DNA from: Patescibacteria group bacterium
GTDB taxonomy: Bacteria; Patescibacteriota; Patescibacteriia; Patescibacteriales; JAQTRU01
Reading direction: 5' to 3'
DNA: 64,000 nt
NCBI GenBank assembly: GCA_041645555.1
Contig: JBAZPX010000002.1
Span: 8,958 to 72,957 of the forward strand
The notes under the pieces were generated by a model that saw only the letters and a list, made by a program, of their open reading frames with translations, was not told the origin of the DNA and ran no database searches. Below are positions 3,002-60,124 of the stretch, in pieces; the stretch's first letter is position 1; the number at the start of each line of letters is the position of its first letter. The translations under genes were made by a program, and so were the position numbers.

Positions 3002-3763
3002 ATGATTCCAAACAAAATTGTGACAATCTTTATCGCGACTTTTTTAACGCTTGGCTCAATTTATCTGGCGATTTTAAGCTGGAACGCCGTCAAGACCCAT
3101 GATTATATCGGTATTAGTGAGCAACAACGCCATTCAATTACGGTTATGGGAGACGGCGAAGTAATTGGCGTGCCGGATATAGCCAAGGTCCAGCTTGGTT
3201 ATAGTATAGAAAAGAAAACGGTAGCCGCGGCCCAGGCAGATAATACGGAAAAGATGAACGCCGTTATAAAAAAGTTAAAAGATGACTTTAAGGTTGATGC
3301 CAAAGATATAAAGACAATAAATTACAGCATTTACGCGCAGTATGACTGGAATAAGGGCACGCAAATTTTTCGGGGCTATGAGGTAAGCCAGAGTCTTGAA
3401 GTAAAGTTAAGGGAGATGGAAAAAGTAAGCCAAATTTTAGACGCGGCCGGCGGTTTAGGATTAAATCAGATCGGCAGCTTAACGTTTGAAGTTGACGATG
3501 AAGAAATATTAAAACAGGAAGCAAGGATTAAGGCCATAGAAGCGGCCAAAACTAAGGCCGAAGATTTAGCAAAAGTAGCCGGGGTTAAATTAGGCCGGAT
3601 TATCAGTTTTTCCGAATCAGGCGATGGAACCATGCCCGTCGCTTACCGTTCCAGCTATAAAACGACTGACGAGGCATTAGGTATGGGCGGGGCCACTCCG
3701 GAAATTGAAGCTGGCAGCAGCGAGATAAAAATAACCGCCACGGTTGAGTACGAAATACTTTAA
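3002..3763 (+). CDS. SIMPL/DUF541 family periplasmic-type protein
   Basis: N-terminal TM/signal. GDGEVIGVPDIAKVQLGY, tandem alpha/beta halves and C-terminal ITATVEYEI are typical of SIMPL. Confidence 0.75.
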   Translation: MIPNKIVTIFIATFLTLGSIYLAILSWNAVKTHDYIGISEQQRHSITVMGDGEVIGVPDIAKVQLGYSIEKKTVAAAQADNTEKMNAVIKKLKDDFKVDAKDIKTINYSIYAQYDWNKGTQIFRGYEVSQSLEVKLREMEKVSQILDAAGGLGLNQIGSLTFEVDDEEILKQEARIKAIEAAKTKAEDLAKVAGVKLGRIISFSESGDGTMPVAYRSSYKTTDEALGMGGATPEIEAGSSEIKITATVEYEIL

Positions 3764-3782: not shown

Positions 3783-4177
3783 GTCATTGCGAGGAGCGTA
3801 GCGACGAAGCAATCTAACGAACACCTAAAATAATATGAGGGAGGAAAGGTGTCATTATGTTTATATAAACACCAACAAATGGAATTCGGTTTTGTATACC
3901 GGAGTGACTAATAATTTACTAAATAGAAATTACCAACATAAAATAAAGGAGAATAAGGAAAGTTTTACGGCTAAGTATAAAGCCAATAAACTTGTTTATT
4001 ATGAAATATTCTCTGACATTCGTGACGCTATCGCCAGAGAAAAGCAAATCAAAGCCGGTTCAAGAAAAAAGAAAATTGAGCTGATAAAAGAGTTTAATCC
4101 AAAGTGGCGAGATTTAAGTGAGGATTTATAATTCGTTAGATTGCCGCGTCCCGCCTGCGGACGGGACTCGCAATGAC
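3783..4177. mobile_element. GIY-YIG cassette bounded by a two-block inverted repeat (copy 1)
   Basis: Left arm GTCATTGCGAG (3783-3793) and CAATCTAACGAA (3810-3821). Right arm TTCGTTAGATTG (4132-4143) and CTCGCAATGAC (4167-4177). The same architecture recurs at 29858-30258. Confidence 0.45.
3835..4131 (+). CDS. GIY-YIG family nuclease (URI domain)
   Basis: YVYINTNKWNSVLYTGVTNNLLNRNYQH ... REKQIKAGSRKKK. Paralog at 29916-30212. Confidence 0.85.
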   Translation: MREERCHYVYINTNKWNSVLYTGVTNNLLNRNYQHKIKENKESFTAKYKANKLVYYEIFSDIRDAIAREKQIKAGSRKKKIELIKEFNPKWRDLSEDL

Positions 4178-4188
4178 AATAAGAAGAA

Positions 4189-5322
4189 ATGGATAAGCAA
4201 ACCCTAAAAACCAAATTAAAACAGCAAGCCAAGAAAATCGCTTGGCGGGTAATTACCACGGTTATTTTAACTTTAACCGCGGTGATTACGGTTTGGGTTT
4301 ACGCCGCTTTTGTTGAACCCCTGGCCGGACCAAATTCTTCCGACCAGGATTTTGCCCAGAATATTTTAGGCAATAATGACGCTAATAATGATTTTAGCTC
4401 TTCTAATGTCGCTTCTAACGCGGATGGAAGTATTATTGAAAGGCAGGAATATCAGCAAACCCAAATCGGCACTTATGCGGATGCCACGACAACGCCAGCT
4501 GCGGCGGCTTCAGTTTTTGCGGCTTTAAAGGGACTGGATTATTATGGGTATCAGGAGTACACCAGTGGAAGCGGCAATTGGACCGTGCCCGCGGGTGTAA
4601 ATTTTATTGATGTGTTGCTTGTTGCGGGTGGTGGAGGAGGAGGTGGTGGTACTGCTACGGTCGGGGGTGGAGGAGGAGGTGGTGGAGAGATAGTTATGAG
4701 AAGAAACTATAAAGTCGCTGGTTCTGCCACTATAGCATACAGTGTTGGAGCGGGTGGGGCAGGTGGTGCCGCGAGTACTGCGGGTAATAGCGGAGCAAAT
4801 ACTACTTTCGGAACGCTGACTGCTTACTTAGGGAATGGTGGTGGCACAAATGCGAGTGGAGCAACACGTGGTCAGGGAGGACATTGGGCAGGAATTCTCA
4901 GTGCTGGAAGTCTTACCCTTGGGGATACAGCAACTGGAGGAGCAGGTGGAGGCTTGTGGTCTGCACCAGATGGCTCAACTGCCTTAGCAACGATGGCTTG
5001 TGGGCAAAATGGTAAAGTAATAGGTGGTCTGGATTTCATCCGTATTGGGGGCGGGGGTGGTGCTGCTGGGGGTCCTATAAACGAAGGAAAAGGTTTTGGT
5101 GGGCATTCTCTTAGTACCGGTGGTAGTGATACAGGTTCCGGTGGTGCTACAGCAGCCGGTTATCCTGGCGGAGGTTCTTATGGTGCTGGTGCGGATGTTA
5201 AAGCTTCAGATGCCGTAGGTAATTCAGCAGTAGCTAATTCAGGTGGGGGTGGAGGAGGTGGATACGGGAATAACAAGGCTGGTGGTGCCGGCGGTTCAGG
5301 GTATATTTTAATAACTTGGTAG
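4189..5322 (+). CDS. membrane-anchored protein: shared N-terminal constant region plus glycine-rich C-terminal domain
   Basis: The first ~88 aa are homologous to the genes at 30266, 31126 and 31675 (TM helix, EPLAGPN, DGSIIER). The C-terminus has poly-Gly runs, WTVPAGV and a terminal GGSGYILITW, like phage/CPR glycine-rich domains. Confidence 0.8.
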   Translation: MDKQTLKTKLKQQAKKIAWRVITTVILTLTAVITVWVYAAFVEPLAGPNSSDQDFAQNILGNNDANNDFSSSNVASNADGSIIERQEYQQTQIGTYADATTTPAAAASVFAALKGLDYYGYQEYTSGSGNWTVPAGVNFIDVLLVAGGGGGGGGTATVGGGGGGGGEIVMRRNYKVAGSATIAYSVGAGGAGGAASTAGNSGANTTFGTLTAYLGNGGGTNASGATRGQGGHWAGILSAGSLTLGDTATGGAGGGLWSAPDGSTALATMACGQNGKVIGGLDFIRIGGGGGAAGGPINEGKGFGGHSLSTGGSDTGSGGATAAGYPGGGSYGAGADVKASDAVGNSAVANSGGGGGGGYGNNKAGGAGGSGYILITW

Positions 5323-22674: not shown

Positions 22675-22793
22675 TATAATAGTATATTATGGACCCCGTT
22701 AGAAATCTTACTAGAAATAAATGGATAAAAAATATTAAAAAATAAATTAATATATTATTATGGAAAAAGAGAGTAACGAAATTTCTAACGGGG
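22675..22793 (+). promoter_or_regulatory. dus leader: TATAAT box, 18-codon uORF (MDPVRNLTRNKWIKNIKK) and 13-bp perfect long-range inverted repeat
   Basis: TATAAT at 22675-22680. uORF 22689-22745. CCCCGTTAGAAAT (22694-22706) versus ATTTCTAACGGGG (22781-22793). Confidence 0.4.
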
Positions 22794-23854
22794 CGAGGAA
22801 TTTTTGGTTAAAACTAAAAAAACCGATTTACGCCCTGGCGCCAATGGCCGGGATCACGGATTCGGCTTTTAGGCAGATTTGTAAAGACTTCGGGGCAGAC
22901 GTAGTTTATTCGGAAATGGCTTCGGCCACCGCTTTAGTTTATAACCCGGCCAAAACCCTGGAAATGCTTAAATTTAGCCCGAAGGAGCGGCCTTATGTTG
23001 TCCAGTTATTCGGTTCTAATCCTGAGCATTTTTCTAAAGCCGTGAAGTTGATTGAAAAAAAAATAAAACCGGACGGGATTGATATAAATTTTGGCTGTCC
23101 GGTGCCGAAAGTCGCTCGCCAGAAAGCTGGGGCAGAATTATTCAAAGATTTAAAATTATCCCGTGAGATTTTAAAAACCGTTATTGCCAATACCACTTTG
23201 CCGGTTTCGATTAAAACAAGGGCAAAAGTCGGGGCAATTGATATTTTAGAGTTTTTAAAAAATGTTTCTGATTTAGATATAAAAGCGATTATGATTCATG
23301 GCCGGACTTTCTCCCAGGGTTTTTCCGGACCGGTTGACTGCGAGATTATAAAAAAAGCCCGCCAATTTTTTAACGGGATAATTCTAGCTAACGGCGGGGT
23401 AGGTTTAAACCTCACCCCCGCCCCCTCTCCTAAACAGGAGAGGGGAGTTAAAGATTATTGCGATTGGCTGTTAGACAAAACTGGTGCTGATGGCGTTGGT
23501 ATTGGCCAGGGGGCGTTGGGAAGGCCGTGGATTTTTGAAGAAATCAAAACCTCACCCTCCGCCTCGGCAAGCCTTCGGCCCGCTTCGCCAAAGCTCCAGC
23601 GAGGCGAGCGAGACGGGCCGACCCCTCTCCTAATTAGGAGAGGGGAGAAAGGGGAGAGGTATATATTTAAAATTATTTTAAAGCATGCCGAGCTGGCTTA
23701 TAAATTAAAGGGCAGGTGGGGGATAATAGAGATGCGGAAGCATTTATGCTGGTATATTCAGGGCTTGCCCGGAGCCAGGAAATTGAGGGAAGAGTTGGTA
23801 AAAGTAGAAAGTTTAGATGAAATTAAAAAAATCTTTGCAAAAGGCAAAGATTAG
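22760..23854 (+). CDS. dus: tRNA-dihydrouridine synthase
   Basis: LAPMAGITD, DINFGCP, HGRT, GADGVGIGQGALGRPWIF motifs. Carries two GC-rich in-frame inserts. Confidence 0.9.
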   Translation: MEKESNEISNGARNFWLKLKKPIYALAPMAGITDSAFRQICKDFGADVVYSEMASATALVYNPAKTLEMLKFSPKERPYVVQLFGSNPEHFSKAVKLIEKKIKPDGIDINFGCPVPKVARQKAGAELFKDLKLSREILKTVIANTTLPVSIKTRAKVGAIDILEFLKNVSDLDIKAIMIHGRTFSQGFSGPVDCEIIKKARQFFNGIILANGGVGLNLTPAPSPKQERGVKDYCDWLLDKTGADGVGIGQGALGRPWIFEEIKTSPSASASLRPASPKLQRGERDGPTPLLIRRGEKGERYIFKIILKHAELAYKLKGRWGIIEMRKHLCWYIQGLPGARKLREELVKVESLDEIKKIFAKGKD

Positions 23855-26610: not shown

Positions 26611-26684
26611 ACTCCTACGAATTACGAATTTGTTACGAATATACAAATTGCGGGCGGAATAGTTTGTTGCGAGTTTTAAATATT

Positions 26685-27206
26685 ATGGCCGATAACAATG
26701 CTTTACAATTGAAAAACTTGGAAAGTGAGAAAATAATTGAAGCAAAGATTAAGGAGGGGGCAGGGGAGGCGGGCAAAATCGAGGTGCCGCCGCCAGTTGC
26801 AGAAAAGGAGATAAAGCTGGAAAGCAGGCAGGAAAAAATTATTGAAAAAGAAGGAGGAGGAACGAAAGAGCAGCCGAAGACAACCCCGCCCGCGGGGTTG
26901 ATTGATATTGGCGAAGCCGCGCAGGCGATAAGGGAAAGAGAAAAAGAAGTGGGAAAAATACTGGAAGCGGGAATGGAGGAAATTTATTTAAGCCTGCCCG
27001 CGGACAAACAAGCGGAATTTAAAGCTAAAGGCGAGGAAACAATAAGGGAAATAAACAGCTTATTGGGAAAAGCTAAGTTTAAGGTTGAAAAAATAATTAG
27101 TTTAATAAGAAAATGGCTTTCCCTTATCCCCGGGGTTAACAAATTTTTCTTAGAGCAGGAAGCGAAAATTAAGGCGGACGAGATTATAAAACTTAGAGAG
27201 CGATAG
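26685..27206 (+). CDS. hypothetical protein (Glu/Lys-rich, C-terminal amphipathic segment)
   Basis: ORF in the operon-like run upstream of the ATPase. ATG at 26685 preferred. Confidence 0.55.
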   Translation: MADNNALQLKNLESEKIIEAKIKEGAGEAGKIEVPPPVAEKEIKLESRQEKIIEKEGGGTKEQPKTTPPAGLIDIGEAAQAIREREKEVGKILEAGMEEIYLSLPADKQAEFKAKGEETIREINSLLGKAKFKVEKIISLIRKWLSLIPGVNKFFLEQEAKIKADEIIKLRER

Positions 27207-27231
27207 AAATTGATAATTTAAAATTAAAACC

Positions 27232-29754
27232 ATGGATTACGGCTTTCCCCAAGAAAATATTTATTCGCCTCAAACCAATCTAAATTTAGAATTGGGTCCT
27301 TGGTTAGTTTATTTAATTTGGGCAATTGTTATTATTTTTACCCTGCTTTTAGTAGCCAGGCTTATTAAGTTTTTTTATAACCGGAACCGGGCTTTTGACC
27401 ATATTATTTTTTCCGTCCGGCTGCCTAAGGAAAGGCCCGGGGAAAAAGAGGAAAATTTTGACGTTCAGCACCTGCGCGAAGAAATCGCCAAGGGCGAGAC
27501 GGTTTTTGCGAGCGTTGGCGGTTTGCGCGCGCAAAGAGGGATTTTAGCCTGGCTCTTAGGCCGCGAAGACCATTTTTCCTTTGAAATCGTGGCGCGGGAG
27601 AAAAAAATCTGCTTTTACGCGGTGGCTCCCCGAAAAATGGCCCGTTATCTAGAACAGCAGATTAACGCTCATTATCCGGAAGCGTTAATTGAGGAAGTGG
27701 AGGATTATAATATATTCACTCCGCGCGGAGAAATTATGGCCGGTTCTCTTAAAACCGACCGCAATTTTATTTTTCCAATAAAAACCTATAAAAAGCAGGA
27801 AACCGACCCGATGAATTCAATTATTAATGTTATGTCAAAACTGGAAGCGGATGAATCAATCGCTATCCAGTATGTGGTTCGGAGCGCTAAAGGCGTCTGG
27901 CATAAAAAAGCCGGGGCCATAGTTAGGGAAGTGGCTTCGGGCAAATCCATGGCCGAGGCCCTAAGATTAAACCGGGTGACAAAAGTAATTTCCGCGGTAG
28001 GTAATTTAGCCCAGCTGGCTAAGCCGCCGACGGAAGCGGAAAAGCAGAAACAACTTGGCATGGGGAATAAAACTTCAGCTCTGGAACAGGAGATGCTTAA
28101 AGAGATAGAGGAAAAAAACTCTAAAGCCGGTCTGGATGTTAACTTGCGAATCGTGGTAAGCGCTAAAAACAAGGGGCAGGCGGGGATATTTTTAGACAAT
28201 ATGGCGAGCGCTTTGCGCCAGTATAATTATTATGAATATGGCAATAATTTTAAAAATAAATTAGCGAGAGGCAATCAAAACAGGATAATCAACGATTTTA
28301 TTTACCGGCGGTTTCAGGAAAAATTAAGCTTTCTCCTTAATACCGAAGAATTGGCTTCGCTTTTCCATTTTCCCTTAAAATATACAGAAACGCCTAATAT
28401 CCTCTGGCTGACGGCTAAATACGCGCCGGCTCCGCCTAATGCTCCGGACGAAGGCATAATTTTAGGAGAAAATGTTTACCGCGGGGTAAGGAAAGAAATA
28501 AGAGTAAAAAGAGAAGACCGGCGCCGGCATTTCTATGTTATCGGCAAGTCCGGGACAGGCAAATCGCAGTTTATGGCGAGCTTGGCCATCCAGGACATAA
28601 TAAACGGGGAAGGAGTCGCCGTTTTAGACCCGCACGGTGACTTAATCCAGGATATTCTTTGCCGCATCCCGCCCGAGCGGATAGAAGACGTGGTGCTATT
28701 CTCTCCGGCGGATTTAGAGCGGCCCTTGGCCTTAAATTTAGTGGAATATGACCCTCGTTATCCGGAACAAAAGACTTTCGTGATAAACGAGATGATAAAG
28801 ATATTTGACAAGCTCTATGACCTAAAATCCACCGGCGGCCCAATTTTTGAGCAATATATGAGGAACGCTTTGCTTTTAATTATGAGCGATCCAACCACGG
28901 GTTCAACTTTAATGGAAGTGCCGAAAGTCCTTTCTGACCCCGTTTTCAGGAAGATGAAATTAGAGCATTGCAGCGACCCCACCGTAGTTGACTTCTGGAA
29001 GCAGGAAGCGGAGAAAGCCGGGGGCGAAGCGGCTCTGGCTAATGTCGTGCCTTATATCACCTCGAAACTTACCCAATTTATTTCTAACGATACGATGCGG
29101 CCGATAATCGGGCAGCAGAAAAGTTCATTTAACGTCCGCGATATTATGGACAGGCAAAAAATTCTTTTAATTGATTTGTCTAAGGGCCGGGTCGGGGAAA
29201 TGAATGCTTTCCTTTTGGGCATGATTTTAATCGGTAAAATTTTAATGTCCGCCCTGTCTCGGACCGATATACCGCTTTCCGACCGGAAAGATTTTTATCT
29301 CTATATTGATGAATTCCAAAATTTTACCACTGATTCAATCTGCTCCATTCTTTCCGAGGCGAGAAAATACGGCTTAAATCTAATTATCGCCCATCAATAT
29401 TTAGGCCAGCTTACAAAAAATAAAGATACGACGATTAAAGACGCGGTTTTCGGCAACGTCGGCACCTGGGCCTTATTCAAAGTCGGGTCCGATGACGCCG
29501 AAATTATGGAAAAAGAATTTTCTCCGGTCTTTAATCAATATGACCTTATTAATGTTGATAAATATACGGCTTATGTAAAGCTCCTGATTGATAACGCGGC
29601 CAGCCGGCCTTTTTCCATGAAGACCTTATGGCCTTTGCCGGGCGAAGCGCGGGAAGACATAGCTGGCCGGATAAGGGCCTTATCACGCCTTAAATACGGC
29701 CAGGACCGGAATATAATTGAAGCGGAAATTGCCAGGAGGGCGAAAACAATTTAA
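27232..29754 (+). CDS. VirD4/TraD-like type IV coupling-protein family ATPase, membrane-anchored
   Basis: N-terminal TM. Walker A VIGKSGTGKS, AVLDPHGDL, Walker B LYIDEFQNF, and RKYGLNLIIAHQYLGQL (TraD/TraG C-terminal-like). Confidence 0.8.
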   Translation: MDYGFPQENIYSPQTNLNLELGPWLVYLIWAIVIIFTLLLVARLIKFFYNRNRAFDHIIFSVRLPKERPGEKEENFDVQHLREEIAKGETVFASVGGLRAQRGILAWLLGREDHFSFEIVAREKKICFYAVAPRKMARYLEQQINAHYPEALIEEVEDYNIFTPRGEIMAGSLKTDRNFIFPIKTYKKQETDPMNSIINVMSKLEADESIAIQYVVRSAKGVWHKKAGAIVREVASGKSMAEALRLNRVTKVISAVGNLAQLAKPPTEAEKQKQLGMGNKTSALEQEMLKEIEEKNSKAGLDVNLRIVVSAKNKGQAGIFLDNMASALRQYNYYEYGNNFKNKLARGNQNRIINDFIYRRFQEKLSFLLNTEELASLFHFPLKYTETPNILWLTAKYAPAPPNAPDEGIILGENVYRGVRKEIRVKREDRRRHFYVIGKSGTGKSQFMASLAIQDIINGEGVAVLDPHGDLIQDILCRIPPERIEDVVLFSPADLERPLALNLVEYDPRYPEQKTFVINEMIKIFDKLYDLKSTGGPIFEQYMRNALLLIMSDPTTGSTLMEVPKVLSDPVFRKMKLEHCSDPTVVDFWKQEAEKAGGEAALANVVPYITSKLTQFISNDTMRPIIGQQKSSFNVRDIMDRQKILLIDLSKGRVGEMNAFLLGMILIGKILMSALSRTDIPLSDRKDFYLYIDEFQNFTTDSICSILSEARKYGLNLIIAHQYLGQLTKNKDTTIKDAVFGNVGTWALFKVGSDDAEIMEKEFSPVFNQYDLINVDKYTAYVKLLIDNAASRPFSMKTLWPLPGEAREDIAGRIRALSRLKYGQDRNIIEAEIARRAKTI

Positions 29755-29857
29755 ATAATCTTTAGCCGGCTTGTTCTAGTCTGGCTAAAAATGTTATAAT
29801 GAAGATGCTATATGTGGAGAAAAATATAGCATCTTTTTGCTGTGGGAAAATTGCATT

Positions 29858-30258
29858 GTCATTGCGAGGAGGAGCGAAGCGACGACGAAGCAATCTAACG
29901 AATATTTATAATAGTATGAAGGAGGAAAAATACTATTACGTGTATATAAACACCAACAAGTGGAATTCAGTTCTATACACCGGAGTAACCAACAATTTAT
30001 TGAATAGAAACTATCAGCATAAAATTCAAGAAAACAAGCAAAGTTTTGCCGCTAAATATAAAGCAGATAAACTAGTATATTACGAAGTGTTTAATAGTAT
30101 AAACGACGCTATAACCAGAGAAAAGCAGATTAAGGCCGGCTCCAGAAAGAACAAACTAGAGTTAATAAAAAAGATTAACCCAAAGTGGCGAGATTTAGGC
30201 GAAGATTTGTAGTTCGTGAGATTGCCACGTCCCGCCTGCGGGCGGGACTCGCAATGAC
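29858..30258. mobile_element. GIY-YIG cassette bounded by a two-block inverted repeat (copy 2)
   Basis: GTCATTGCGAG (29858-29868) and CAATCTAACGAA (29891-29902), versus TTCGTGAGATTG (30213-30224) and CTCGCAATGAC (30248-30258). Confidence 0.45.
29916..30212 (+). CDS. GIY-YIG family nuclease (URI domain), paralog 2
   Basis: MKEEKYYYVYINTNKWNSVLYTGVTNNLLNRNYQH. Start set at the ATG at 29916, by analogy with the copy at 3835. Confidence 0.85.
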   Translation: MKEEKYYYVYINTNKWNSVLYTGVTNNLLNRNYQHKIQENKQSFAAKYKADKLVYYEVFNSINDAITREKQIKAGSRKNKLELIKKINPKWRDLGEDL

Positions 30259-30265
30259 GTAAAGA

Positions 30266-31090
30266 ATGATGGACAAACAAATATTTAAAAACAAACTAAA
30301 GGAGCAATTAAAGCAAATCGGCTGGCGGGCTATCACCACGGTTATTTTAACTCTAACCGCGGTGATTACCGTTTGGGCTTATGCGGCTTTTACCGAACCT
30401 TTGGCCGGACCGAATAATTCAGACCAAGATTTTCTCCAGAACATCTTAGGCGCTAATAACAATGATAATGATTTTGACTCTTCAAATGTTGTGTTAAATA
30501 AAGATGGCAGTATTATTGAAAGATTGGAATATGTCCAGGGTCAGGGCTCAACTACTCCTACTTGCGGCAACAGCGTGCTTGAAGCTGGAGAAAACTGCGA
30601 TGATGGCGGGACTTCTTGGACCTCTGGCGCCTGCGCTGCTGATTGCTCAAGACGGAATTATTGGAGCAACCCCATGATTCAATCTGAAACACCATTTGCT
30701 AGCAATGTAAATAGCATTTGCCAATTGCACGGCTTTAATTCTGTCGCAGGCGTTTCTTATTCTTCCTTTGCTAGCACTATAGATTCGGCTGGCGGCTTTG
30801 TTACACAGATTAGCTTTCTTTGCGGGTATCCTAATAACCGTTTTTATAGCAGTTCATATATTACTTCTTATTCTCTTTTAGTTACCACCGGTTTTCTCTA
30901 TACCGGAACTAACTACGTTTGGGCCCTATCTACCTCTTCGTCCCAAACTGCTTCTGTCGCCGCGCTTCTGACTTCATCTACGATAGAAACTTATACTTAT
31001 AACCCATGGACTTGTTACACCTATTACTACAGCCTTAGTAGCTCATATAAAACTTCTTTCCGTGTATCCCAGCTTTGGTGTGCTGACTAA
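30266..31090 (+). CDS. constant-N / variable-C membrane-anchored protein, Cys-rich module plus Ser/Thr/Tyr-rich tail
   Basis: Constant region aa 1-89. TCGNSVLEAGENCDDGG..CAADC module. Ends QLWCAD. Confidence 0.8.
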   Translation: MMDKQIFKNKLKEQLKQIGWRAITTVILTLTAVITVWAYAAFTEPLAGPNNSDQDFLQNILGANNNDNDFDSSNVVLNKDGSIIERLEYVQGQGSTTPTCGNSVLEAGENCDDGGTSWTSGACAADCSRRNYWSNPMIQSETPFASNVNSICQLHGFNSVAGVSYSSFASTIDSAGGFVTQISFLCGYPNNRFYSSSYITSYSLLVTTGFLYTGTNYVWALSTSSSQTASVAALLTSSTIETYTYNPWTCYTYYYSLSSSYKTSFRVSQLWCAD

Positions 31091-31125
31091 TAATTAGAAT
31101 TTAGAATATCAAATACTAAATTAGA

Positions 31126-31656
31126 ATGGGTGACTATAGTCCCAAAAACCAAATCAAAGAACAGGCTAAGCAAATCGGCTGGCGGGCCATCACCACGGTT
31201 ATTTTAACTTTAACCGCGGTTGTTACGGTTTGGGCTTATGCGGCTTTTACCGAACCCTTGGCCGGGCCAAATAATTCTGACCAGGATTTCCTCCAGAATA
31301 TCTTGGGCGCTAATGATAACAACAATGATTTTGATTCCTCTTCGGTAGTGGCTAATAATGAGGGCAGTATTATTGAAAGATTGGAATATATTCAAGGTCA
31401 GGCTTCAACCACGCCGACCTGCGGCAATGGAGTTTTAGAAGCGGGCGAAAATTGCGACGATGGTGGCGTGAGTTGGACTGCCAGCACCTGCGCTGGTGAT
31501 TGCTCAAGACGAAATTATTGGAGCAACCCCATGATTGGAGATGCAACTTTTGTCAGCCAAAGTAGGGCGGACTATTGTCAGATGCTTTCTTTTAACAGTT
31601 GCGCAACTTTTAGCCTTAATGGTGGGGCAGTTAATCAAATTTGGTGTACGGACTAA
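31126..31656 (+). CDS. constant-N / variable-C membrane-anchored protein (short form)
   Basis: Same constant region and TCGNGVLEAGENCDDGG..CAGDC module. Ends QIWCTD. Confidence 0.8.
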   Translation: MGDYSPKNQIKEQAKQIGWRAITTVILTLTAVVTVWAYAAFTEPLAGPNNSDQDFLQNILGANDNNNDFDSSSVVANNEGSIIERLEYIQGQASTTPTCGNGVLEAGENCDDGGVSWTASTCAGDCSRRNYWSNPMIGDATFVSQSRADYCQMLSFNSCATFSLNGGAVNQIWCTD

Positions 31657-31674
31657 AGAAACTAAAAATTAAAA

Positions 31675-32394
31675 ATGGATAAACAAATATTAAAACAAAA
31701 ACTCAAGGAGCAAGCCAAGCAAATCGGCTGGCGGGCAATTACCACGGTTATTTTAACTCTAACCGCGGTGATTACCGTTTGGGCTTATGCGGCTTTTACC
31801 GAACCTTTGGCCGGGCCGAATGATTCAGACCAAGATTTTCTCCAGAACATCTTAGGCGCTAATAACAATGATAATGATTTTAATTCCTCAAATGTCGTAG
31901 CTAATCTGGACGGAAGTATTATTGAGAGATTAGAAGGTATAGCTTCTTCTACTTGTGGCAACGGTTTAGTGGAATCCGGGGAAGGTTGCGATGATGGCAG
32001 CACGAGTTGGACTGTTGGCACTTGCGCTGGGGACTGCTCAAGAATAAATTATTGGAGCAATCCCAGGATTGGCATTCATCTTATTGGGCATGACTCTTAT
32101 ATTATGAATAGTTTTTGCCAAATCCATAATTTTAATAGTTATACCACATTCAGCAGCACTTCTTCTTTAACAAACCAAGCTTCAACTAGGACTTCTTGGT
32201 CATCTTTTGATTGTGCTACCTACCTATATAGTATTTTAAATTATTCGCTTAAATCAGATTTATCCAGTTTTACTTCAAAGAGTCCTTACAGCACTTTGCT
32301 GGCGGTTATAACGACCACGGGTTGTAATGGGTATTCTGATTTAAAAAGCAGTTCTTATGATGTGTATACAAATCAAATCTGGTGCGTTGATTAA
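31675..32394 (+). CDS. constant-N / variable-C membrane-anchored protein
   Basis: Same constant region. TCGNGLVESGEGCDDGS..CAGDC module, distinct Ser/Thr-rich tail. Ends QIWCVD. Confidence 0.8.
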   Translation: MDKQILKQKLKEQAKQIGWRAITTVILTLTAVITVWAYAAFTEPLAGPNDSDQDFLQNILGANNNDNDFNSSNVVANLDGSIIERLEGIASSTCGNGLVESGEGCDDGSTSWTVGTCAGDCSRINYWSNPRIGIHLIGHDSYIMNSFCQIHNFNSYTTFSSTSSLTNQASTRTSWSSFDCATYLYSILNYSLKSDLSSFTSKSPYSTLLAVITTTGCNGYSDLKSSSYDVYTNQIWCVD

Positions 32395-32444
32395 TCTTAA
32401 AGATTAGGCATTAAGGAGTAAGAGATTAAAAATTAATTAATGAC

Positions 32445-32489
32445 TTAAAACAAAAACTCAAGGAGCAAGCCAAGCAAATCGGCTGGCGG
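32445..32489 (+). pseudogene. 5' stub of the constant-N family (no start codon, no ORF)
   Basis: 45/45 nt identical to 31690-31734 (the 5' end of the preceding gene). The sequences diverge immediately on both sides. Confidence 0.7.
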
Positions 32490-32551
32490 CTTGCCAAAAA
32501 GGTAAAAATTTTGTAAGATAATAAGGTAGAAATTATAATAAAACAAAAAAT

Positions 32552-33301
32552 ATGAAAAACAAAAATCAAGACCAAAATTCCGATTTTTTCAATGATTTTG
32601 GCGATGACCAGGGAACAAAGGGCGGCTTATTGGACGAGGGAGAAGAGCTTGACCTTGAAGCAAGAGGTTTTTTGCTTGAACCCGAAGAAGGTAAAAAAAG
32701 CAAGAAAAAAGAGAGGAAAGAGAAAGACCATGAAAAAGTAGTTATTAGCCGGGCCAAAGTTATTCTTATAAAAAGACTGCTGGAAAATGTTAAGGAAAAT
32801 AACGATAAGCTAGTAGAAATCCTGTCGGTTTTAGCCCCGGGCGATGAAGAGACCCGCATTGGCATCAGCCAAATAGGAGAGGAAGCTGAAGATGACGAAA
32901 TCACGCCCCAGTCCGGGGAAGAGGCCGGAAAAATTATTGAGGGAGTTTTTGACGGGGAAAATATGATCGGTCCGGACGGAAAGCAATACAGCGTGCCGGC
33001 TAATTACGCTTCCAAATCTAAATTAGTGGAAGGCGATATTTTAAAACTTACTATAACCAATAGCGGTACTTTTATTTATAAGCAGATCGGGCCGATTGAG
33101 AGAACGAGAGTGTTGGGAGAGCTAAAGAAGGACAATGACGGCGATTTTTTTGTAGAATCCGAAGGGGTAAAATGGCGTGTGCTTCCCGCCAGCGTAACAT
33201 ATTTTAAGGGCAATCCGGGCGACGAAACCGTTATTTTAATTCCGAAAACCGGAGAAAGCAAATGGGCGGCGGTGGAGAATATAATCAGGAAAAGGGAGTA
33301 G
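32552..33301 (+). CDS. hypothetical protein (acidic N-terminus, beta-rich C-terminus)
   Basis: Long ORF with a terminator downstream. No family recognised. Confidence 0.55.
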   Translation: MKNKNQDQNSDFFNDFGDDQGTKGGLLDEGEELDLEARGFLLEPEEGKKSKKKERKEKDHEKVVISRAKVILIKRLLENVKENNDKLVEILSVLAPGDEETRIGISQIGEEAEDDEITPQSGEEAGKIIEGVFDGENMIGPDGKQYSVPANYASKSKLVEGDILKLTITNSGTFIYKQIGPIERTRVLGELKKDNDGDFFVESEGVKWRVLPASVTYFKGNPGDETVILIPKTGESKWAAVENIIRKRE

Positions 33302-33356
33302 TTTTTGTATGTCGGATATTAGATGCTAGTTTTTAGCTTTTAGAACTATTTATAAA

Positions 33357-33389
33357 AACCACGTATTTCCGGGAAGGTCGTGGTTTTTT
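33357..33389 (+). terminator. intrinsic terminator
   Basis: AACCACG/CGTGGTT stem followed by TTTTT. Confidence 0.7.
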
Positions 33390-33491
33390 GTATCCTTGAT
33401 TTATTCTAATTTAATGGTAGAATGTAAAAGTAATAGGAGGTTTCCAAAACCTATTTTTAGTTTTTTATTTTTTATCTTTTATTTTTAAAAA

Positions 33492-35078
33492 ATGGCGACA
33501 TTATATAGAAAATACCGGCCGCAAAATTTTGCGGAAATGGTCGGGCAAAACCATATCAAGGTGACGCTGGAAAACGAAATTCAATCCGGCCGGATTGCGC
33601 ATGCTTATCTTTTCTGCGGACCCAGAGCCGTGGGCAAAACGACTTTAGCCCGGGTGATTGCCAAGGCGGTTAATTGCTTAAAAAGAAAAGAAGGGGAGAG
33701 CGAACCGTGCAACCAATGCGAAATTTGCGAAGAAATAACGGTTGGCCGGAGTCTGGATATTATGGAAATAGACGCGGCTTCCCATACCGGTGTGGATAAT
33801 GTTCGGGAAAATATTATTACTTCGGCCCGCACCGCCCCTTCCCGCTGCAAATATAAGGTCTTTATCATTGATGAAGTCCACATGCTTTCTATTTCCGCTT
33901 TTAATGCCCTGCTTAAAATCATTGAGGAGCCGCCGGCTAATGTTATTTTTATCCTCTGCACCACCGAAATCCACAAAGTCCCGACCACGATTATTTCCCG
34001 CTGCCAGAGGTTCGATTTCCGGCGGATAGGCGTTAATGACGTAGTCAGAAAATTAAATTATATTGTAAGCAAAGAGGGGATAAAAATAGATAAAAAAATT
34101 CTTGAGTCAATCGCCAGAAAATCTGAAGGGTATATGCGCGACGCGGAAGGGCTTCTCGGCCAGATAGTTTCTATCGGTGGCCGGGAAATTACGCAGGAAG
34201 AAGCGGATTTAGTCATACCGCGAAGCGATTTGGACGAAATTATTAACCTCATTGGCTATTTAATTAAAAAAGATGCGGCCAATGCCGTAAGGTTAACCAA
34301 TAAACTAGTGGACGAAGGGGTTAATTTGTCCGCCTTTATCTCCGACTTAATTGAAGTTTTAAGGAAAATAATGCTTGATAAAATCAGCGCCGGCAACCTG
34401 GCGCTGGAATTCGGCGAAACTTTAGAAATAAAAATTAACGAGGTTTCACGCGAGCTTACCTTAGAGCAGCTTACTTTTTTTATAGAGAGATTTATAAAAG
34501 TAAAGAATGAATTAAGAGATAGCTTTATCGCCCAATTGCCCATGGAACTGGCTATTACCGAACTTTGCCTGGTTAAAGAAGCGGCTGCCGCCAGAAACGT
34601 CCCGGTTGCCCCAAAATCATTTTCCGGAGCGGCCGTAAGGCCGATTTCTAACCCCGGAGCCGCCTCGGCTAACATGAGTTTAGAGGAAATAAAAAACCGC
34701 TGGCATGAAGTTTTAGCCCGGGTAAAACAGCATAACCATTCCTTATCCTTTATCCTCCGGGTCTGCCAGCCCCAGGACATAGCCGGCTGCGAGCTCTGCC
34801 TGGCTTTTAAGTATAAATTTCACAAAGACAGAGTAAGCAATATCCAGGTAAAGGGATTAGTAGAAAATATTTTATCTGAAGTTTACGGCCAGCCTCTTTC
34901 TATCCGGGCCATAATTGATGAGAGTTTAGAGATAAATGGCGGGCAGGGGAATGGCCAGGGGGTTGAAACTGAAAATTCCGGTCCGGAGCTAAAAGACGCG
35001 GAAAGCGCCAGCAAACCGGAGAACGGCAATATGTTAAATGACCTGTTAAAAACTTTCGGCGGAAGGATTGTGAAATAA
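33492..35078 (+). CDS. dnaX: DNA polymerase III subunit gamma/tau
   Basis: YRPQNFAEMVGQ, GPRAVGKTT, IIDEVHMLS, SRCQRFDF motifs. Confidence 0.9.
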   Translation: MATLYRKYRPQNFAEMVGQNHIKVTLENEIQSGRIAHAYLFCGPRAVGKTTLARVIAKAVNCLKRKEGESEPCNQCEICEEITVGRSLDIMEIDAASHTGVDNVRENIITSARTAPSRCKYKVFIIDEVHMLSISAFNALLKIIEEPPANVIFILCTTEIHKVPTTIISRCQRFDFRRIGVNDVVRKLNYIVSKEGIKIDKKILESIARKSEGYMRDAEGLLGQIVSIGGREITQEEADLVIPRSDLDEIINLIGYLIKKDAANAVRLTNKLVDEGVNLSAFISDLIEVLRKIMLDKISAGNLALEFGETLEIKINEVSRELTLEQLTFFIERFIKVKNELRDSFIAQLPMELAITELCLVKEAAAARNVPVAPKSFSGAAVRPISNPGAASANMSLEEIKNRWHEVLARVKQHNHSLSFILRVCQPQDIAGCELCLAFKYKFHKDRVSNIQVKGLVENILSEVYGQPLSIRAIIDESLEINGGQGNGQGVETENSGPELKDAESASKPENGNMLNDLLKTFGGRIVK

Positions 35079-41030: not shown

Positions 41031-41126
41031 CCCCACGAATTACAAATCCTTTACAAATTTACGAATTCCATTAAAAACGTTCCAAGATAATATTTGTATA
41101 TTCGTAATAAATTCGTAATTCGTGGG
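41031..41126. repeat. stand-alone ~96-nt palindromic element (family C, both arms)
   Basis: Left arm CCCACGAATTACAAATCCTTTACAAATTTACGAAT. The reverse complement of the right arm (41092-41126) is 33/35 identical to 26614-26648. Confidence 0.7.
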
Positions 41127-48425: not shown

Positions 48426-48492
48426 CCAAAAATCCAAAATTCAAAAATCAAATGTCAAATCAATTTCAAATGTAAAAATCCAAAGCTACTTT

Positions 48493-60054: not shown

Positions 60055-60088
60055 CTACGAATTACAAATCTATTACAAATTTACAAAT
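60055..60088. repeat. family C repeat arm (left of ORF 60125)
   Basis: CTACGAATTACAAATCTATTACAAATTTACAAAT, inverted relative to 60572-60605. Confidence 0.65.
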
Positions 60089-60124
60089 ACCAAATTTTAC
60101 ATCTAACTAAGGATTAAAACCATT

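Follow-up and report, generated by a model that had tools for sequence, protein, structure and literature searches.

Does a small nuclease gene that lies directly upstream of a tandem gene array take part in rearranging it, or are the two simply neighbors? We examined this question in a stretch of 64,000 nucleotides (nt) from a Patescibacteria group bacterium (assembly GCA_041645555.1, contig JBAZPX010000002.1, positions 8,958 to 72,957 of the forward strand), hereafter the window, in which a GIY-YIG nuclease cassette (cassette B) precedes three consecutive genes, g1 to g3, and a 45-nt copy of a gene start (the stub). A second cassette (A) precedes a distant relative of the array genes, g0. 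An initial annotation had suggested that the locus is a nuclease-stimulated system that shuffles surface proteins. We find it likely that two separate things stand here side by side, an ordinary tandem cluster of paralogs and an element of the Ssn type upstream of it. The cluster would change by homology-driven tandem duplication, gene conversion in its conserved 5' part and deletion. The element sits in the short intergenic spacer before g1, with a second copy before g0. The element is not needed for the dynamics of the array. Nuclease-driven diversification is not supported because arrays and cargo swapping occur in relatives that are free of cassettes and because no family gene was present in the available flank of the 80 closest metagenomic nuclease relatives (0/80).

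The list of open reading frames (ORFs) confirmed three consecutive head-to-tail genes starting at 30266, 31126 and 31675, with spacers of 35 nt between g1 and g2 and 18 nt between g2 and g3 (Table 1). The shared 5' region was recovered by the repeat search as a block of ~300 nt, whose identity to g1 is 82% in g2, 77% in g3 and 70% in g0. In g0 this block covers 4207-4506; the gene does lie behind the second nuclease cassette, 26 kb from the array, cassette and gene together spanning 3783-5322. The proposal that the 3' halves are unrelated, on the other hand, applies to g0 only. Protein alignments showed that g1-g3 are homologous end to end, from the start codon to the Q(I/L)WCxD terminus (pairwise identity 64-74%), and carry in the same order a conserved N-terminus, a Cys-rich acidic repeat, NYWSNP, a CQxHxFNS motif and the terminal Q(I/L)WCxD. 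Their main difference is a Ser/Thr/Tyr-rich insert of variable length, found in g1 and g3 and not in g2. This layout, from N-terminus to WCxD end, was also detected in 11 further proteins from other metagenomes. The C-terminus of g0 is the only one of the four that truly differs, and it matches phage tail-fibre PHROG 863 (E = 4.9e-23). Searches of g0-g3 against Pfam and NCBIfam returned no match except TIGR02232, to which the Cys-rich repeat of g1 is similar at a score just under the cutoff (18.8 versus 20.8 bits), and these databases gave no toxin-domain matches for the C-termini of the array genes. No terminator was found in a scan across the array, and an Rfam scan of 29000-33500 (E ≤ 10) yielded just two chance-level matches.

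Table 1. Coordinates of the features discussed. Positions are those of the window unless an L number, denoting a locus elsewhere, is given.
Feature	Position	Strand	Description
Cassette A	3783-4177	+	5' SRM 3783-3814 (+), ssn-like gene 3835-4131, 3' SRM hairpin 4139-4177 (-)
g0	4189-5322	+	N-terminal ~88 amino acids (aa) common with g1-g3; glycine-rich, tail-fibre-like C-terminus
ATPase and WCxD family gene(s)	27232-29754 with 30266-32394; L015:1578-4929; L140:243-3646		
5' SRM-like repeat, cassette B	29858-29895	+	GTCATTGCGAG-loop-GCAATC; match to relaxed SRM architecture
ssn-like gene B	29916-30212	+	single-domain GIY-YIG nuclease, 98 aa; Pfam GIY-YIG E = 1.2e-13
3' SRM-like repeat, cassette B	30220-30258	-	hairpin in single-stranded DNA (ssDNA); ends 7-10 nt before g1 start codon
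g1	30266-31090	+	274 aa; predicted signal/anchor, conserved acidic module, Cys-rich acidic repeat, WCxD-type C-terminal domain with long S/T/Y insert
g1/g3 gene-conversion tract, g1 side	30311-30487	+	partner in g3 at 31717-31893
g2	31126-31656	+	176 aa; minimal family member, domains as in g1/g3, no insert
g3	31675-32394	+	239 aa; member of 'GIASSTCGNGLVESGE' sub-lineage; orthologs P0288 and P0289/L140 in other genomes
Putative remnant of deleted fourth array gene (g4)	32419-32489	+	spacer, mutated start, codons to gene nt 60; last 45 nt as in g3
Probable ancestral 3' flank of array	32490-32539	+	promoter-like sites TTGCCA-17-TAAGAT and TTGTAA-17-TATAAT for 249-aa gene (promoter scan)
Cassette-family junctions 1 and 2	window		before g0 (cassette A) and g1 (cassette B)
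Junction 3	STD1_219, L014:4790-4990		g0 ortholog; ORF-less remnant resembling a miniature inverted-repeat transposable element, two repeats with ~110 nt between
Junction 4	STD1_219, L018:4667-4960 (same place as L005:11426-11719)		nuclease with in-frame TAG; empty site in L033
Junction 5	L140:1-243		upstream of VirD4-like ATPase; ORF-less B-type remnant and ~45 nt of g1-like gene start

The three genes are thus head-to-tail homologs over their whole length, and copy number differs at the orthologous locus: behind the same ATPase there is one gene in L015, at least two in L140 and three plus the remnant in the window. Their proteins match a Patescibacteria metagenome-assembled genome at NCBI (WC619_01580 to 01590), g2 being identical to WC619_01585. 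The 7 kb from 27001 to 34000, stub included, are 100% identical in two ENA assemblies, as are shorter JGI and Logan contigs, of which the former spans the stub and the latter stops early in g3. No structural variant of the array was present in these four assemblies.

Is the 5' region of these genes kept alike by selection or by gene conversion? The initial annotation had considered it homogenised. We estimated synonymous (dS) and nonsynonymous (dN) divergence by the Nei-Gojobori method on a codon alignment for the pairs among g0-g3. Over the first 88-90 codons, g1/g2, g2/g3 and the three g0 pairs reached a dS of 0.80-0.99 with a dN of 0.12-0.22, and g1/g3 a dS of 0.34 with a dN of 0.06. Over the next ~73 codons, the values for g1/g2, g1/g3 and g2/g3 were 1.2-1.8 and 0.35-0.47, respectively, with a dS of 1.23 for g1/g3. 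The g0 ortholog in the sister genome STD1_219 (L014) gave a dS of 0.39. At the protein level, the N-terminal ~88 aa show a mean column identity of 69% across genomes and 21 invariant residues (19 sequences). Because silent sites are nearly randomised in five of the six pairs while the protein stays constant, purifying selection on the protein probably explains most of the 5' conservation. Synonymous sites about as diverged as those downstream had been named in advance as a pattern that would speak against shuffling; five pairs come close to it and g1/g3 does not.

Homogenisation is accordingly evident for g1/g3 and, to a lesser degree, in the stretch of all three array genes that codes for the transmembrane helix, where 13-17% of third positions differ, as compared with ~42% elsewhere in the constant region. 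As far as alignment nt 222, the grouping of g1 with g3 is favored by 34 informative sites, versus 5 and 7 for the alternative groupings; beyond it the counts are 26/39/37 (Fisher p = 6e-8 for the switch). The longest identical g1/g3 run exceeds permutation expectation (p = 0.0015). Within the ~177-nt tract shared by the two genes there are 7 mismatches in 177 nt and exact runs of 20, 74 and 59 nt, the two longer of which had first been given as 75 and 47 nt. This tract is a clear case of conversion or crossover, and such mosaic similarity along the array genes (phylogenetic incongruence) is the mark of a tandem cluster evolving by conversion. Recombination at the constant region therefore stands, in the switch at nt 222 and in a stub that would record contraction of the array; the cassette seems to have no driving role in it.

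The stub itself is, as first noticed, exact: the repeat search returned 32445-32489 as a 100% copy of 31690-31734 at the 5' end of g3. Homology extends past these 45 nt to 26 nt of upstream spacer and three degenerate codons (~32419-32489), and the similarity to g3 likewise takes in spacer and degenerate start. In L140 a g3-type gene comes after the ATPase and is separated by a 32-nt spacer from another family gene, of which the contig contains only the start. Positions 32419-32455 align without gaps to this spacer and gene start (31/37 nt), with ATT in the window in place of the ATG of L140. Directly after the stub lies a block, CTTGCCAAAA..AAATTTTGTAA.ATA, that in L015 directly follows the stop codon of a single family gene (0/2000 shuffles scored equally well); the L015 order is ATPase, one family gene, a homolog of the 249-aa gene, two more ORFs and DnaX. 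Given this putatively ancestral flank directly after the stub and the colinearity with the start of the second gene of L140, the simplest reading is that the stub is the relic of a terminal fourth gene, g4, orthologous to that second gene and deleted from nt 61 to its 3' end. Simple tandem duplication was rejected as its origin, as no single-segment duplication gives a full gene, its first 60 nt and then the ancestral flank, whereas deletion does. That identity to g3 is complete over the 45 nt, with several differences in the 26 nt before them, suggests that the 5' coding end of g4 had converged on g3 before or after the deletion. We infer this order of events at the locus.

The stub could alternatively have been introduced by assembly, or be a repeat that arose by chance or has a function of its own, for example as a regulatory decoy. 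It measures only 45 nt, near common k-mer sizes, and abuts the -35 box of the promoter-like site of the next gene. However, the two ENA assemblies and the JGI assembly that cover the stub match the window exactly; the k of 141 used for the MEGAHIT-style ENA contigs exceeds the length of the repeat, which rules out an assembler's join, and unique sequence begins within 60 nt on either side. The homology also continues upstream, through the mutated start codon into the spacer, in the same order as at a real gene start in L140, and no comparable fragment was detected in the other examined family loci apart from a stub in L140 that was spotted by eye. An artefact or a repeat unrelated to a former gene is, on these grounds, hardly credible. 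Matches of the stub search in L033 were rejected as internal cargo repeats of a fused double gene.

Having established how the array changes, we turned to the proteins it encodes. They belong to a family that appears to be specific to Patescibacteria and secreted or surface-anchored. Search matches came only from Patescibacteria and unclassified metagenome proteins: word-indexed searches returned 17 and 61, ~12 species-representative genomes contained 36 family loci, and an exhaustive profile search retrieved 387 cluster representatives of 65-1535 aa. A family protein combines a putative export leader and helix, an acidic module and an interchangeable C-terminal cargo. At the N-terminus a basic stretch is followed by a hydrophobic helix of ~22 residues, whose terminal A-x-A immediately precedes an invariant F-x-E-P; in some variants the signal peptide is short and classical and ends in VNA|AFIEP. 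Leader and helix may thus be a Sec signal or signal-anchor, with or without cleavage. A type IV pilin or pseudopilin was rejected, since the residue preceding the helix is not consistently Gly (KIAWR, SLTWR), position +5 lacks Glu and the conserved motif, AAF[VT]EP, follows the helix.

The acidic module of ~45 aa is strongly conserved (AF[VT]EP..GP..DQDF.QNILG..NDF.SS.V..N.DGSIIERLE), and no Pfam or NCBIfam model covers it. The last ~40 aa of the constant part, one copy of which is encoded at 30400-30530 of the window, form runs of 3-11 tandem copies in proteins of 300-1500 aa (P0020, P0021, P0043), match nothing in Pfam and look like an undescribed repeat domain. As the module also occurs in tandem repeats within very large proteins, it may serve as a stalk or spacer. 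Many family members are stand-alone proteins of 96 aa that contain the constant part alone; others carry Lcl_C, DUF1554, glycine-rich, WCxD-type or further cargo domains. Some are two complete units fused in one ORF of ~590 aa (e.g. L033:1678-3459 and P0018), in which the second unit retains AAF(V/I)EP and has lost the signal/anchor. Tandem arrays are common in the family, including cassette-free ones in L010 (96, 396, 96 and 138 aa, one of the four members disrupted), L007 (96 and 317 aa) and L140 (at least two genes). Two weak matches were all that the family profile gave in viral contigs, a result that does not support a phage origin of the module.

In three genomes a WCxD-type family gene lies directly after an 840-aa DUF8128/TraG-like (VirD4-type) ATPase. 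A functional tie between the two is possible. A 2025 survey reported thousands of stand-alone homologs of type IV coupling proteins and no adhesins in Patescibacteria (PMC12102498).

The cassette, which the initial annotation did not recognise as part of a described system, can be compared with the Ssn family (Chenal et al. 2025, Nat Commun, PMC11893778). These site-specific ssDNA nucleases are 94-aa, single-domain GIY-YIG proteins encoded in an NTS-ssnA-NTS layout. Cleavage by these enzymes is confined to ssDNA and falls a few nt upstream of an oriented hairpin repeat (NTS/SRM), and 42% of Ssn homologs are flanked by the repeat on both sides, a layout called insertion sequence (IS)-like (PMC11893778). 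In the window, both nuclease copies have 98 aa and share 82% protein identity. An ORF of cassette B starting at 29799 is longer merely by reading through the SRM; the GIY-YIG domain occupies residues 45-120 of this extended ORF, and no other domain was found in it. Both copies are small single-domain proteins with no extra DNA-binding domain, and inverted hairpin repeats of 20-50 nt with an oriented 5' leader (NTS CGTCATTCCCGCG..GCGGGAATCYRG) lie on both sides, as in Ssn elements. A single-domain GIY-YIG gene for 98 aa with inverted hairpin repeats at both ends has the NTS-ssnA-NTS architecture, so the cassette is not undescribed; judged by architecture and protein size, it fits an Ssn/SRM element.

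Further properties of the repeats and nucleases are as follows. The entire window holds only four GTCATTGCGAG-loop-GCAATC units, all of them at the two cassettes. Folded as DNA, the 3' SRM of cassette B reaches -14.3 kcal/mol (z = -3.9), and the two 3' units have z-scores of -2.6 and -3.9. Loops vary between cassettes with the hairpin retained, and they covary. Among the 80 closest metagenomic nuclease relatives, an SRM unit occurs upstream in 42, downstream in 50 and on both sides in 35, the last being comparable with the 42% for Ssn homologs (PMC11893778). Nuclease homologs number ~8000 and, among the matches listed, measure 91-135 aa, mostly 97-100 aa; the best match in a PDB sequence search was UPF0213 BH0048 (E = 0.13). 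The segment 3802-4185 before g0 is 80-83% identical to the one before g1. With a dN of 0.095 and saturated synonymous sites between copies A and B, both nucleases are maintained by purifying selection, and the two copies are old paralogs.

Related genes were also seen outside the window. A third ssn-like gene, encoding protein P0219, is 71% identical to copy A. Four ssn-like GIY-YIG genes, all in one orientation, are located within ~11 kb of a 15-kb locus (L135:3779-14337, L136:1650-12208), among genes for an M16 peptidase, a UvrD/PD-(D/E)XK helicase-nuclease, pheS, pheT and a TSP3-like gene.

Is the cassette tied to the gene family? The nearest relatives of the nuclease, 70-93% identical, were found at unrelated intergenic sites. 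Those at 68-79% identity with flanks that were inspected (L051-L056) had unrelated neighbors, for example a membrane-protein gene and pheT, or lay on contigs too short to tell, and a relative 93% identical to cassette A (L131) is placed between HAD/PEP-utilizer and phosphatase genes. On the side of the family, ~45 distinct genes were examined and a cassette or its remnant was present at five junctions only. Arrays, fused double units and many cargos occur with no cassette nearby (L010, L007, L033, L140, L015). The junction between ATPase and family gene has no cassette in L015 or in L140, and L140 still has an array.

The five junctions, from three related genomes, have the same geometry, the 3' repeat of the cassette ending 7-12 nt before the family start codon. 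At both STD1_219 sites the nuclease ORF is lost or interrupted and the family genes are intact. The remnant in L140 is accompanied by the second 5' stub, ATGGACAAACAAACACTAAAA..., which runs into a stop after 10 codons and lies across the ATPase from the side that cassette B and g1 occupy in the window.

These junctions bear on the reading first proposed, in which the nuclease, as a dedicated partner of the family, would promote unequal recombination and the shuffling of cargos by cutting in or close to the constant region. The shared geometry speaks for it, as do purifying selection on both nuclease ORFs of the window and the recombination footprints together with two independent 5' stubs, that of L140 beside a cassette remnant. 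In Neisseria, moreover, genes adjacent to dRS3 show greater diversity, and target repeats of Ssn are concentrated around membrane-protein genes (PMC11893778). Nevertheless, arrays, fusions and cargo diversity arise where cassettes are missing, none of the 80 nuclease relatives adjoins a family gene, cassettes are scattered between housekeeping genes, and the nuclease ORF is lost or interrupted at both STD1_219 sites. The constant region is not under continuous homogenisation, there is no SRM within the array, the assemblies reveal no structural variants, and characterised Ssn enzymes act on ssDNA only, beside their own repeat (PMC11893778). We consider a dedicated partnership very unlikely.

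The association could instead run in the opposite direction, the SRM-ssn-SRM element exploiting the family: its 3' end abuts the constant region, which would provide a one-sided homology anchor for copying between loci, or the element would simply be co-duplicated with the family 5' end. The element would then sometimes be copied together with attached family genes. Similarity between A and B begins exactly at the 5' SRM and continues through the cassette into the constant region, with unrelated upstream flanks. Two cassettes of one genome are more alike than cassettes at orthologous sites: A and B have loops in common, as do L014 and L018. The block of cassette B, g1 and g2 is furthermore an insertion relative to L140, which carries a B-type remnant and a g1-like stub on the opposite side of its ATPase. 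Co-duplication with the gene 5' end, one-sided-homology copying via the constant region and target preference all fit these observations. Yet synonymous sites are saturated between A and B, which marks them as ancient paralogs and leaves no recent spread visible; there is no left-side homology, no target-site duplication was seen at the sites compared, and the sample consists of three genomes. Exploitation of the family by the element is a minority reading in our judgment, although it fares better than the partnership. In L131, AATAATAAAAAAAGGA follows the cassette relative (3600-3640) and resembles the spacer and start of g0, AATAAGAAGAAATGGA (4178-4200 of the window); the match is weak and A-rich, and a carried-over flank is possible.

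A further and more novel reading, which we regard as unlikely, treats the SRM-ssn-SRM element and the family 5' end as a co-mobilised unit. The nuclease, like SsnA of N. meningitidis, would cut ssDNA a few nt upstream of its repeat, here on the antisense strand and inside the 7-12-nt spacer before the start codon. The freed strand of the family gene would have the constant region as its 3' end, homologous to every paralog, and one-sided homologous recombination could then copy cassettes and attached cargo genes between loci and leave 5' stubs behind.

Several points weigh against our preferred interpretation of a tandem cluster next to an independent Ssn-type element. The placement of cassettes in this lineage is not random, and pure coincidence is unlikely. 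The published SRM string, HGTCWYN(0-2)YYVSBRHN(0-5)WNVSBRGN(0-2)RNCYNB, matched neither strand anywhere in the window; the loops here are longer than the string permits. Membership in Ssn is argued from architecture. The low divergence of the transmembrane-coding stretch may reflect homogenisation beyond the single tract, or constraint at the nucleotide level. Finally, secretion and the stalk role are predictions from sequence, and an AlphaFold2 model of g2 built on a 14-sequence alignment had a mean predicted local distance difference test score of 52.6, too low for a fold search.

The window also contains other repeats and paralogs. Short palindromes rich in GC (CCCCTCTCC..GGAGAGGGG and CCCTC..GGGGG types) recur at 23418-23447/23618-23647, a pair inside a Dus-like ORF (22760-23854), and at 46786-46824/62457-62495. 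AT-rich intergenic repeats of the ACGAATTACAAAT type were found at 26617-26652, 41035-41070, 48448-48483 and 60057-60092, as well as at 14454-14514/48466-48526, and one such pair is 61 nt long with 89% identity. Tandem paralogs of cofactor-independent phosphoglycerate mutase (6881-8458/8490-10094) share a 47-nt stretch that is 94% identical (7898-7944/9507-9553).

Patescibacteria live attached to other microbes and, to our knowledge, almost nothing has been learned about their surface proteins. The analysis defines an unannotated family of ~390 cluster representatives with a shared module, probably for export and as a stalk, swappable C-termini and frequent arrays, and its proteins are reasonable candidates for host-contact proteins. 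It also extends elements that are Ssn/SRM-type by architecture to Patescibacteria, where they are sometimes very dense (four in 15 kb). The reproducible junction between element and family offers a place to test effects of Ssn on neighboring genes. If co-mobilisation were true, the Ssn element would be a passenger and an occasional driver of the remodelling of surface-protein arrays in Patescibacteria.

Comparison with known systems places both parts of the locus. Like Ssn (PMC11893778), the nuclease is a single-domain GIY-YIG protein of ~94-100 aa, its gene is bracketed in IS-like fashion by inverted hairpin repeats of 20-50 nt that begin with GTCAT and end with ..ATC, and the repeats are intergenic and beside envelope-protein genes. 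The repeats here differ in their TTGC/GCAA stem, in the greater length of their loops (15-22 nt), in failing the published degenerate string, in their number, four copies in 64 kb and all at cassettes versus hundreds dispersed, and in their Patescibacteria host. Free-standing GIY-YIG homing endonuclease genes (phage Seg, I-TevI type) are likewise small insertions present or absent at the same intergenic site in relatives. This class was rejected, as the 98 aa comprise the catalytic domain only, with no DNA-binding domain, hairpin repeats mark both ends and relatives occupy many unrelated sites. Polymorphic toxin loci, such as Rhs and contact-dependent inhibition (CDI) loci, resemble the array in their conserved N-terminal and variable C-terminal parts and in truncated copies downstream. 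They too were rejected: immunity genes would not fit into spacers of 35 and 18 nt, toxin-domain matches are lacking in the searches above, and what remains of the deleted gene is its 5' end, whereas the orphans of toxin loci are 3' toxin-immunity modules. Modular phage tail-fibre and receptor-binding genes also join a conserved N-terminal attachment or stalk to exchangeable C-terminal domains and recombine at the conserved part, but the family genes are chromosomal, lie among housekeeping genes and carry a predicted signal/anchor. Tandem paralog clusters encoding secreted proteins or lipoproteins, such as that of Staphylococcus aureus as summarised by Tsuru and Kobayashi (2008, PMC2568036), likewise consist of head-to-tail paralogs with very short spacers, use a conserved gene-end region as recombination substrate and vary in copy number and mosaic structure between related genomes. 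The Patescibacteria proteins differ from these in having no lipobox, an N-terminal module of their own that is absent from Pfam and NCBIfam, and far more diverse C-terminal cargo. The family is thus an unannotated example of a familiar type, a recombining tandem family of putatively secreted proteins, standing beside a recently described element.

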